NCBI GenBank assembly: GCA_001929475.1
Contig: LXFE01000507.1
Coordinates: forward strand, 1 to 33,921
From: Neolecta irregularis DAH-3
Taxonomy: Eukaryota
DNA: 33,921 nucleotides
Reading direction: 5' to 3'
Both the position numbers and the translations under genes were made by a program. The notes beneath the pieces were generated by a model. It made no database searches. It had not been told where the DNA came from and saw nothing but the letters and a program-made list of their open reading frames with translations. Below are positions 7,653 to 25,930 of the stretch, in pieces; the stretch's first letter is position 1; the number at the start of each line of letters is the position of its first letter.

Positions 7653-7826
7653 TTAGCCTGGAGTAGGGCAAAGAGTTACTAGTAACCAACAATACAAGGT
7701 TACCTTGCGGTCTTCCTCAAGATGAAGCCAAATGTATGAATAAAGTTATTGATTGCAATTTGAATGAGCAATAGAAGAAAAAAATACATTATCGCTATCC
7801 CCATAGCATACATGAATGCAGCCACA

Positions 7827-8467
7827 TCAGAGCTCTATGCCAAGGAATACGAAGTTCTCTGACTCCTGGGCTGGTTTTTTTATCAACTCGAATCCAATCC
7901 AGCGGAGATCCTTTATCAAGCATCCTAGACATATTAGCTAGCTCTTGAGGGCCGAGACATACGAAGATCATCACGTTGGCGGTCCACACAAAGGATGAGA
8001 TGCTCGCAAGCAAAATAGTCAGCCGCCAACTCTGAAACGGCGATCAAGCCTTCTCTGAGATGTATGTCTGCAACTACTGAATCGACGCAAAGATGGAAAA
8101 AAGAATGCACGACGAAGGCATTCCACGTCACGCCATAGGCGTCTTGGATGACCAGTTTTTTGAGTTTTGAATGATGACAGGGGAATATTAAACGGCCGGA
8201 AAAAAGAGAAGAGGTCGCGCCTTCAAGTCCTAGAGATCTGTCACCTCTCCAGGATGAAGGATACGACGCCTCGCCGGTAGACGACGAGGACTTTTGGCCG
8301 GTGGCCTGCGGGATCAGCGATGCGATGGGATTTGCGGTACCGCCTCAGGGCCACCACTTGAGCGCGCAGTTGCCGGTACTGGAAGACAGAGAAGACTGCG
8401 CGGTACAAGACGAAGCGGTACTGAACAAGCTGCTGCTAAGACTGGCGGGAGAGAAGTTATTCGCCAT
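7827..8467 (-). CDS. OAZ1: Ornithine decarboxylase antizyme; needs a +1 programmed frameshift at CCC-TGA (8350-8345); introns 8340-8306 and 7962-7925
   Basis: ORF1 is 40 aa and ends ..CALKWWP-TGA. The spliced +1 frame gives ..TWNAFV..LREGLIAVSELAADYFACEHLILCVDRQRDDLRCLIKDLRWIGFEL..ENFVFLGIEL*, the fungal antizyme signature (S. pombe spa1 orthologue). Confidence 0.92.
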
Positions 8468-8616
8468 GCGGTGGATCAGCGAAAGGATGAAAGCGGGTGG
8501 CGAGTAATTATGTCGCAAATCGTGGTGGTAACGCCACGACCCCCACGGGCGGAACAATCTGCTCATGTGACCACTTGGCCCAGGTGCCACTCCACCAATT
8601 TTTGTTGTTTCTCGCG

Positions 8617-9591
8617 ATGCACAAGCACCATCACCATGCAGGCGAGCACCCATACTGCGAACTTCTCGGAAATTTTTCTCTTTTTATCCAGGTATGTTGT
8701 TTAATTGCCACTCTATTGACTGGGCTGAGGCATCGCTGGGCCTCCTCGCATGTGCGGCTTTGTTGATCAAGCGAAAGCTCGAACAGCCTCCTCGGCCCTG
8801 GAAAACATGGTATCCACTTCCCGTGCATCCAACATCCTCATAGACCTTCAGGGTGTTTGATGTCTCGAAGCAGATATTTGGCTCCATCGTCGTGCATTTC
8901 GTCAATATTGGAATCTCGACATTTGCAGGAGTCGCAAACTACTCCAACCCCTGTGTTTGGTACGTCCTACATTTGTCGCAATGCGTCGCTTATTTCCAAA
9001 GGTACTTTCTAAATGTACTCGTAGATACCACTATTGGCGTCGTCATTCTGTGGTTCTGGTTAATAGTTCTTTCCAAAGTGAGTAGATTCTTCCAATGGAA
9101 AGGCACTCGGTCCGGCGATTATGGGGATATCAAGGGACATCCAAAGGCATTCATGATAACTCCCCCACGTTTTACTCATAGAATAGATATCTTTCTGGTT
9201 TCGTCAGACAGCATTATACACCCTGACCTTGCTCCTTATGAAGCTTGTAATTTCGTTGGCATTTTACTTGATGCCATATCTTGACCGCATGGGTACCTGG
9301 ATGATAAGTTGGACACAAGGCCACCGCAAGCTGCAAATCTTCTTTGTCGTGTTTGCATTCCCTTTGGTGGTATATTGCCTATCTTTTCCCATGGCTCACA
9401 AGTTTAAGATGAATGTCATTCAGTTATGGTGTATCGACAATATCATCATGTTCAAACATCATGATGTAGGCATATTCAATGAGACAGAGTGTCTTGTTGA
9501 CGGAACTCGCATCGAAAGACATCCTGATCTCGTCCATTCTAGATCTGCATCCCCCGTTCCCGAGCTTGATCTTCTTCATCCACCGGAATAG
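8617..9591 (+). CDS. YPL162C/STIMATE(TMEM110)-family multi-pass (vacuolar) membrane protein, 5 introns
   Basis: Spliced: CELLGNFSLFIQ|ASLGLLACAALLIKRKLEQPPRPWKTW|VFDVSKQIFGSIVVHFVN..NPCVW|YFLNVLVDTTIGV..SGDYG..PK|ISFWFRQ..KLQIFFVVFAFPLV|MNVIQLWCIDNII. Confidence 0.85.
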
Positions 9592-12289: not shown

Positions 12290-14222
12290 ATGTCTGAAGC
12301 TATGTATATCTTTCCTTTTCACATCTATGAAAGTTAAACTGACACCAAGATTGCGCTTGGCCGGTATTTCCGGCCATGTGCGATCGCTCGATAACAGTGC
12401 TGGTTCGTTCATCTCACATACTTGAGACATATATAGCTAATACTCTTACGCAAAGATCTCGGCCTAATCGGTCTCGCTGGTACGTTATTATATTCCTTTA
12501 ATGGCATTGCTGATCGTGTTAGTTATGGGGCAGGTATGTAATCGCCTTGTCCTGGTTTAATCATGTACTATAGAACCTGGTCCTCAACGCCAATGACAAA
12601 GGATTTATTGTTGGTATACATTCAATTCAAAAGTTACACGGTCTAATCTGTGGCTAGCTGTTTTCAATCGTACTGTCTCCAAGGTTGACCACTTTTTGGA
12701 GAACGAAGCCAAAGGTAAAATATTATCATATTTTGGAAGCTCAAATCGAACAGGGACAAATATTGTCGGTTCTCATTCGATAGAAGAGTTATGCTCTCTG
12801 TTGAAGCGACCCCGTAGGGTTATGCTTCTTGTCAAAGCCGGTTCGGCCGTTGATGACTTCATTGCCAAACTCTTACCACATCTTGAGGAAGGAGATATCA
12901 TTGTTGACGGTGGTAACTCTCACTTCACTGATACCAACAGAAGATGCGATGAGCTCTCAAAGCGCGGAATCCTTTTCGTCGGCTGCGGAGTTAGTGGTGG
13001 AGAAGAAGGTGCTCGAAATGGTCCAAGTTTGATGCCTGGAGGCAACGAAGCTGCATGGCCTCATATCCGAGAAATTTTCCAAAAGATTTCCGCTCATACT
13101 GATGGAAAACCATGCTGTGAGTGGGTTGGCTCTGTAAGCTCCAAGATGTTCTTACAGAAACGTACTCAACCCCAAGGGTGGTGCCGGTCATTACGTGAAA
13201 ATGGTTCATAATGGTATCGAATATGGTGACATGCAAGTCATTTGCGAAGCTTATGACTTGTTGAAACGTGGTCTTGGAATGCATGAGAATGAAATTGCGG
13301 ATGCATTCACCGAATGGAATAAAGGTGTCCTCGACTCTTTTTTGATTGAGATTACCAGCGACATTCTTAAGTACAACGACAAAGACGGGGCACCTCTCGT
13401 CTGCAAGATTCTCGATACTGCTGGCCAGAAAGGGACCGGGAAATGGACCGCTATATCTGCTCTCGATCTCGGTATGCCAGTTACCCTCATAGGAGAAGCT
13501 GTCTTCAGTCGATGCCTATCATCTATCAAGTCAGAACGGCATGTAATTAGTGAAAGATTGTTCCTGACTTTAGTGTTCGAGCAAGCCGAATTCTCTCCGG
13601 CCCACGTCCAGAATACCACGGAGACAAAAGTAATTTCATCGCTCAACTCGAACAAGCCCTCTATGCCTCAAAAATCATATCATACACTCAGGGATTCATG
13701 CTGTTTCGAGAAGCAAGTAAGACTTACAAATGGAACCTTAACTACGAGTCTATTCCTCAGATGTGGACTGATGGATGTATTATTCGTAGTGTTTTCCTCC
13801 AAGATATCACCGCTGCTTTCACCAAGAATCCAGAATTGGAAAACTTGCTCTTTGATCCGTTCTTTAAGAAGGCTATCGAAACGGCTCAAAATAGTTGGAG
13901 GCAGGTGGTCGCTCAAGCTACCTTATGGGGAATTCCTTGCCCTGCTTTTAGCACTGCCCTGAGTTTCTTTGATGGATATCGAAGCGAACGAGTATATATT
14001 TTCAAAGCTTCTATTGACAAATTTAGCTCCCAGCTAACTTGCTGCAAGCTCAACGAGACTACTTTGGAGCTCACACTATCCGAATACTCCCGGAATGTGT
14101 TTCAGAATCACTTCCAGCTGATGAAGGTGCTTTGCATCGATTGTTAGGTCTAATGTACAGATATCCATATCAACTGGACAGGACATGGCGGAAACGTCAG
14201 CGCGTCCACGTATCTCGCCTAA
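12290..14222 (+). CDS. gnd1: 6-phosphogluconate dehydrogenase (decarboxylating), 10 introns, with 5' micro-exons and two possible acceptors in intron 1
   Basis: [113 protein letters not shown]. Confidence 0.97.
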
Positions 14223-25104: not shown

Positions 25105-25930
25105 TGTGTTTATCGATCAAAATAGATAAAAATTGGCGAGACAGTTCGAGGTCTGAGAAAAAAAATCAATAATAAGACGACTGAAGTTCTCGACAACCAA
25201 CGTTCTCGAGTTATGTCAAGAGATTACTGAATGATTGAAGCCTCAAAAAGAAATATTTGGATACATATAGTTTTGAAGGGTAGTATATTCTGACAAATCC
25301 GGTACCTTTGGTGTACTAAGAATAATGATTAGGACAAAGATCAATCGGCTTTCAAGTTGCATTTTTAGAATAGATGGTTCTCGTATATATCTAATGTAAT
25401 ATTTGACGCTTGAGCTTTATCTGGCTAGATGCCTTGACAGGTATTGAAGTCAGATTCAAGTTTTCATTCTTTCAACACGTTTGACGAGACTTTGCAAGCG
25501 AGATCTACAGAAGATACTTCATCAATCAATAGAACAGGTCGATGGGGAAAAGAGATTAACTACAGCTGAATTCTCGAAACAGCATGAATTTCTGAGCATA
25601 TGAGTTAATTTTTATGGCATAAAGAGCTTGTTCGAGCTGAGCGATAAATTTACTTTTGTCCCTATGGTATTCTAGGACGTATCTGATTCATACAATAGAC
25701 TCCAATTAAACACTGAAATCATCCTAGAAATTTCAAAGGAAAGAAGGGGCACTATATAAAGGACTCCTGGGGATATGTTCCCGTTAGTAGGTAATATGAT
25801 AAATAAACGTGACAGAAACTTAGGTTAACACAGACTCATTCCTCGACTCGGCTACTGTTAACACTCAGTCAGACACCGTATAAAAATAAGCATTCTTGGA
25901 ATCATTTAGAGCTATCATTATTGGCAGCTG

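Follow-up and report, generated by a model that had tools for sequence, protein, structure and literature searches.

A putative three-exon antizyme gene of an intron-rich fungus, with a CCC-TGA frameshift site and a probable 35-nt intron directly downstream

Antizymes bind and destabilise ornithine decarboxylase, and the frameshifting by which they are made is stimulated by polyamines. Just 5′ of the shift codon of antizyme mRNAs lies a proximal 5′ element (module A), the consensus of which is UGG-UGC. As the shift site itself, CCC-UGA is on record in the antizymes of several ascomycete clades and of Pneumocystis carinii (text and Table 1 of PMC1874602), and such sites form a small minority (2016 review, PMC5009743). 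In Spa1, the antizyme of Schizosaccharomyces pombe, the shift site is followed within 150 nt by a 3′ stimulator (PMC1874602, section 10). According to the same section, most antizymes carry the weakest or second-weakest termination base after the stop, and in mammals termination is efficient when a G stands at that position (Ivanov and Atkins, PMC1874602, section 10).

Structured sequences downstream of the shift site have been described for several groups of fungi. The antizyme mRNAs of mushroom-related fungi (Agaricomycotina) form two stem-loops that have no spacer between them and start 17 nt past the stop (PMC1874602, section 10 and Figure 4B legend); their stems are of 6 and about 10 bp, six covariations were reported, and the shift site is UUU-UGA (PMC1874602). 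In Neurospora- and Aspergillus-related fungi, the stem-loops begin 31–41 nt downstream (PMC1874602). Annotation of such genes can go astray: for the antizyme of Cryptococcus neoformans, a wrong annotation left out the shift site along with the 31 nt at the 3′ end of exon 2 (PMC1874602, section 7).

The locus compared with these systems is on the minus strand of a 33,921-nt stretch of DNA from Neolecta irregularis DAH-3, the whole of which was analysed (the window). Judged from its sequence, it very likely encodes, in three exons, an ornithine decarboxylase antizyme of a fungus rich in introns, a judgement that takes antizyme identity, frameshift site and 35-nt intron together. Its features are as follows.

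8348–8467, minus strand: ORF1, 40 codons, opening at the nearest ATG (8467) and closing with the shift codon CCC (8350–8348)
8345–8350, minus strand: putative +1 frameshift site CCC-TGA, with TGG-TGG before it and GGCG after it
8306–8340, minus strand: probable intron 1, 35 nt, with donor GTACCG, internal CTGAT and acceptor CAG, 4 nt past the TGA; GC 0.60
7963–8305, minus strand: exon 2, 114 codons of ORF2, with the first part of the ODC_AZ domain; in the +1 frame once intron 1 is out
8214–8291, minus strand: two adjacent predicted hairpins (8291–8268 and 8267–8214) from a single-sequence fold
7925–7962, minus strand: intron 2, 38 nt, GTATGT..CTAAT..TAG, backed by the collinearity of exons 2 and 3 with protein P0001 and by contiguous Pfam profile positions
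7827–7924, minus strand: exon 3, with the final 32 codons of ORF2 and its TGA (7829–7827), reaching the end of the ODC_AZ profile

Re-reading of the sequence bore out the minus-strand layout given in a preliminary description of this DNA (shift site, GGCG, 35-nt segment and shared DNA frame). Within 8467–8300, the ATG at 8467 opens the 40-codon ORF1, which ends AAG TGG TGG CCC and is closed by TGA at 8347–8345. GGCG (8344–8341) follows, and then the 35-nt segment (8340–8306), which starts with GTACCG, contains CTGAT, ends with CAG and is followed by GCC ACC GGC. On the DNA, ORF1 and the downstream ORF (stop-to-stop 7934–8344) share one frame with a single TGA between them, and the zero frame from this TGA to 8306 is free of stops (13 codons, GGTANPIASLIPQ). 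The +1 frame of the unspliced sequence ends after 10 codons, at the TGA within CTGAT. ORF2 comes to stand in the +1 frame of ORF1 only on an mRNA that has lost the 35-nt segment; on this reading, it is the 3n+2 length of the probable intron that makes both ORFs appear to share a frame on the DNA.

The shift site proposed earlier, CCC-TGA at 8350–8345, has TGG-TGG directly 5′, in the position of module A, and a G as the base after the UGA. Its use in fungal antizymes is already known (PMC1874602), and in common with the fungal CCC-UGA antizymes, the gene has CCC-UGA at the end of ORF1 and the ODC_AZ domain within ORF2, which after splicing would be in the +1 frame; the gene differs from them in its very divergent sequence and in the probable intron 4 nt past the stop. 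It resembles S. pombe Spa1 as an ascomycete antizyme in a setting of short introns, Spa1 being expressed through a polyamine-regulated +1 frameshift, whereas the shift site of Spa1 is UCC-UGA rather than CCC-UGA. With UGA-G, it also departs from most antizymes, which have a weak-termination base there (PMC1874602, section 10).

The antizyme identity was assessed by profile and sequence searches. The preliminary description had called the gene an antizyme and had named the Pfam family ODC_AZ (PF02100) as the profile against which ORF2 should be compared. On exon 2, this profile scored 27.5 bits, above the curated cut-off of 24.2 (E 3.1e-6, profile positions 32–73), and a 36-residue piece on exon 3 carries the profile on from position 77 to position 113 of 114. 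In hhalign, exon 2 aligned to named fungal antizymes (an alignment of 10 antizyme models) with a probability of 96.4% and an E value of 1.1e-9, so the call stands. ORF1 is without a Pfam match, as expected for the ORF1 of an antizyme.

Close relatives are scarce. In an exhaustive search of 1.84 billion representatives at E ≤ 0.001, P0001 was the only match (E 7.8e-4); BLASTP aligned the two at 40% identity over 62 residues (E 3e-13) plus 31% over 36 residues, and with intron 2 removed the antizyme is collinear with P0001 without gaps. S. pombe Spa1 was not detected from the window ORF2 among these 1.84 billion representatives. A profile search seeded by P0001 returned 10 proteins, seven of which are named antizyme-domain proteins of Lipomycetaceae (Dipodascopsis, Lipomyces, Myxozyma and Limtongia). 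The best named matches of the antizyme and of the 6-phosphogluconate dehydrogenase (6PGD) encoded elsewhere in the window are both from Lipomycetaceae and not from Taphrinomycotina; an identity of 75% for 6PGD does not, however, assign the organism to Lipomycetaceae. Other searches yielded no further relatives: the read-through translation as query had no match at E ≤ 0.001 among 4,750 candidates of 97–310 residues; a PDB sequence search with exon 2 gave four weak matches at E ≤ 10, none of them an antizyme; and metagenome scans for relatives' DNA gave 562 pattern stretches for the ORF2 exon and 80 for P0001, none of which was confirmed. The antizyme here is very divergent, and the protein databases are without it.

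In this genome, UGA is an ordinary stop, because ORF2 closes with TGA where the family profile runs out (position 113 of 114) and the rebuilt 485-codon 6PGD is without an in-frame stop.

For this antizyme, we infer splicing, frameshifting and a polyamine response along the following lines. Two very short spliceosomal introns, of 35 nt (8340–8306) and 38 nt (7962–7925), would be cut from the pre-mRNA, leaving an mRNA with ORF1 closed by CCC-UGA and ORF2 placed in the +1 frame. A ribosome that has CCC in its P site and UGA in its A site would slip ahead by one base, as happens in every other frameshifting antizyme, read GAG GCG next and continue over the exon junction; the product would be about 188 residues long. 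Without the slip, translation would terminate and the ORF1 peptide alone would be released. The junction is expected to fall within the stretch covered by the ribosome at the shift site. The two-hairpin element of exon 2, placed 19 nt past the UGA by splicing, would be the candidate 3′ stimulator.

To judge the 35-nt segment, the introns of the window were collected. The 6PGD gene (12574–14222, plus strand) was rebuilt from tblastn matches of four homologues. It has five introns of 44, 43, 35, 35 and 34 nt, respectively, and its 485-residue product is collinear with the homologues (best match P0012 at 90.7% identity; best named match Lipomyces oligophaga at 75%). The five donors validated in this way are GTATAC, GTAAGC, GCATGT, GTATAT and GTGCTT. 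Ten reference introns were used in total: the five of 6PGD, antizyme intron 2 (38 nt) and four from the joining of long ORFs (33, 37, 48 and 49 nt). The homology-validated set was relied on because the catalogue made by ORF joining is noisy; a 121-nt intron in 6PGD, called by ORF joining alone, proved false, homology giving 43 nt at that place. Since the introns are of 34–44 nt in 6PGD, 38 nt for antizyme intron 2 and 33–49 nt in the ORF-joined set, 35 nt is a usual intron length here. Window-wide, introns are extremely short, the validated or well-supported examples being of 33–49 nt.

One of the 6PGD introns is of the GC-AG type (13539–13573, plus strand; 35 nt), with a GCATGT donor, a CTGAC branch and a TTTAG acceptor, and its removal is needed for gap-free collinearity with the homologues.

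Given its signals and setting, the intron at 8340–8306 is very probably real. It has the features of short fungal introns, namely GT-AG borders, a CTRAY motif and a length within the range of the genome. Its CTGAT is 8 nt before the terminal G, a distance that ranges over 6–11 nt among those reference introns that have a CTRAY-type branch. The chance of such a signal set was estimated by scanning for stretches of 30–50 nt that begin with GT and have CTRAY 5–12 nt ahead of the first AG. Three sets were found in 6,183 nt of four long exons and 109 in 67,842 strand-bases (both strands of the window), so that 0.005–0.017 sets of 3n+2 phase are expected by chance in the 31 nt that separate the TGA from the +1 stop. 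Position 8340 is the only GT donor from the TGA to the stop of the +1 frame. When all GT/GC..AG pairs of 20–150 nt were enumerated, none removed the TGA with the frame kept.

The register of the spliced reading was compared with that of Dipodascopsis uninucleata P0129. Read in the +1 frame from the proline of the shift site across the splice, the window antizyme aligns without gaps to residues 40–56 of P0129 with 9 of 17 identities, and among the 40,420 ungapped 17-mer pairs that the two proteins allow, this one ranks first. Of the 14 residues that open exon 2, taken alone, 6 are identical to P0129 residues 43–56 at offset 0, the other 16 offsets reaching at most 3; an identity of 6 of 14 was reached by 12 of 20,000 shuffles. 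The pattern in common is Pro-Glu-Ala, five variable residues, Ser-Ser-Ser-Thr, two variable residues and Ala-Ser. The comparison is with the gene model of one relative (P0129) and covers a serine-rich stretch. An intron of this length, which the preliminary description had placed here, is thus of ordinary size, has a chance expectation of 0.005–0.017 and keeps the register with P0129.

Other borders for the intron were set aside on their local alignment scores, which are 32 for a 50-nt intron to the AG at 8291 and 38 for a GC donor at 8343, as compared with 47 for the 35-nt intron. Whole-protein local alignments were unable to separate the gene models, only the C-terminal domain being aligned.

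Downstream of the shift site, the segment 8291–8214 is predicted from the single sequence to fold into two hairpins at −39.6 kcal mol−1 (z −4.57; 0 of 200 shuffles as stable), and none of 44 coding windows of 120 nt is below z −2.42. The element occupies 19–96 nt past the UGA when the RNA is spliced and starts 54 nt past it when the intron is retained; the unspliced 134-nt stretch as a whole has z −2.10. That splicing would alter the 3′ context, as had been suggested, is supported by this predicted shift from +54 to +19 nt. A junction-spanning helix from a 120-nt fold (8343–8341 and 8305–8303 with 8197–8192) was set aside, exon 2 alone having z −3.5 to −3.9. A search of 7700–8800 against Rfam gave no match at E ≤ 10.

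By its position and stability, the two-hairpin element may act as a 3′ stimulator. It resembles that of Agaricomycotina in being a spacerless pair, the first hairpin of which starts at 19 nt here (spliced) and at 17 nt there; the stems here are of about 9 and 20 bp in a single-sequence prediction, whereas those of Agaricomycotina are backed by covariation.

Two properties of intron 1 bear on how it is spliced. Its donor, GTACCG, is atypical: among the 10 reference donors of the window, C at +5 and G at +6 each occur in none, and C at +4 occurs in one. Its GC content (0.60) equals that of the coding flanks and compares with 0.21–0.50 in the reference introns. Because of the atypical donor and the exon-like GC, intron 1 may be spliced inefficiently, and some retention of so weak an intron would be likely in any fungus. 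These features could also mean that slow or regulated removal of the intron serves as a second control on antizyme output and hairpin spacing, in which case transcripts that retain it would yield only ORF1 or ORF1 plus 10 residues. The +5 and +6 bases absent from all 10 reference donors, the GC of 0.60 and the position of the two-hairpin element (z −4.57) at 19 nt past the UGA when spliced and at 54 nt when unspliced agree with such gating, but the validated donors GTATAC, GTAAGC, GCATGT, GTATAT and GTGCTT point to a general degeneracy, and the hairpins are a single-sequence prediction. Donors in this genome are degenerate in general, and we regard splicing-gated frameshifting as unlikely.

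The +1 frameshift on spliced mRNA is also preferred over a dual mode of expression that the preliminary description had put forward, frameshifting on spliced RNA or read-through of the UGA on intron-retained RNA. In such a mode, most of the antizyme would arise by frameshifting, and read-through would add a functional antizyme with a 14-residue insert. ORF1 and ORF2 are indeed in frame on the DNA with a stop-free retained intron between them, and the weak donor and exon-like GC make some retention plausible. However, a 3n+2 length is found in 4 of the 10 reference introns and an open reading in 13 of the 30 intron-frame pairs, so that the combination is expected by chance in ~17% of cases; the in-frame look is treated as a coincidence because it is expected about one time in six. 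Moreover, the read-through reading is identical to P0129 at 3 of 17 positions, whereas shifting and splicing give 9 of 17; the best local alignment of the read-through reading requires a 9-residue gap, and the UGA is followed by G, with which termination is efficient in mammals (PMC1874602, section 10). Neither mark of read-through genes, a stop in a leaky context or conservation of the peptide read through, is seen here (UGA-G; 3 of 17 versus 9 of 17). A literature search on antizyme with intron retention and frameshifting returned, by title or abstract, nothing on antizyme read-through or intron retention. The dual mode is thus not supported and is considered very unlikely, and it is just as improbable that there are two recoding routes between which splicing efficiency chooses while setting the spacing of the two hairpins.

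Least likely of all, and hardly credible, is a gene without the intron, be it a read-through or recoded-UGA antizyme or one inactivated by a nonsense mutation: there is one continuous frame with a single in-frame TGA, and the Tetrahymena antizyme does without frameshifting (PMC5009743), but UGA is reassigned there and an ordinary stop here, so that case is not applicable; TGA closes ORF2 at the family C terminus, the canonical TGG-TGG-CCC-TGA cassette is kept, a full set of intron signals of modal length stands at the sole place and in the sole phase that make a +1 shift productive, the spliced register matches P0129, and ORF2 is intact over two exons.

The reading favoured here, a +1 frameshift on spliced mRNA, also bears on how antizymes are annotated in related fungi. 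The Lipomycetaceae models (D. uninucleata P0129; Lipomyces, Myxozyma and Limtongia P0130–P0135) are the nearest detectable relatives, with domain identities to the window of about 33–40%. Judged by length (126–175 residues), six of the seven begin inside ORF2. The seventh, P0129, is like the window in having Ser-Gly-x-Pro-Glu-Ala in the ORF2 frame over the shift site and the next 14 residues in register; over its residues 37–42, five of six match the +1 frame of the window and one of six matches ORF1. It is thus probably an ORF2-frame model that starts from an upstream ATG, and from the lengths and the N terminus of P0129, none of the seven named models appears to include the frameshift. The idea that P0129 has a window-like 40-codon ORF1 was dropped, as its N terminus fits the +1 frame and the equal length is meaningless. 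The frame of this N terminus leaves the register comparison downstream of the shift site unaffected. Back-reading P0129 suggests that the zero frame of its locus would be xGG-xGU-xCC-xGA-RGC, which is compatible with the canonical UGG-UGU-UCC-UGA.

The Cryptococcus neoformans antizyme is comparable in that an intron donor stands shortly downstream of the shift site and automatic annotation erased the frameshift; it differs in being of a basidiomycete with GUU-UGA and another intron distance, and in the window no in-frame intron can hide the stop. CCC-UGA sites, a close downstream intron donor and an annotation that erases the frameshift are therefore known already (PMC1874602), and that a probable exon junction falls 4 nt away from the shift site is, structurally, a minor curiosity. 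What the locus adds is a trap for annotators, as an in-frame stop between two ORFs can mask a +1 frameshift combined with a 3n+2 intron, and an accurate gene model of a highly divergent antizyme. In so compact a cassette, with the junction 4 nt from the shift site and strong predicted hairpins after it, a link between splicing and frameshift efficiency is testable.

Some minor observations concern the surroundings. Further in-frame ATGs are found at 8566 and 8653 on the minus strand, in the same open frame as ORF1 (stop-to-stop 8345–8683), so ORF1 could be of 73 or 102 codons, respectively, if transcription began far enough upstream. The GC content is 0.56–0.60 across the recoding region (8190–8467, minus strand), with 0.56 in ORF1, 0.60 in intron 1 and 0.57 in the first 116 nt of exon 2; it is 0.47 in the remainder of exon 2 and ~0.44 in the window. 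Far from the 6PGD gene, 38 residues encoded at 25565–25678 on the minus strand match 6PGD residues 294–331 (84% identity to P0012, E 1.3e-13), and this piece looks like a duplicated exon fragment or part of a pseudogene.
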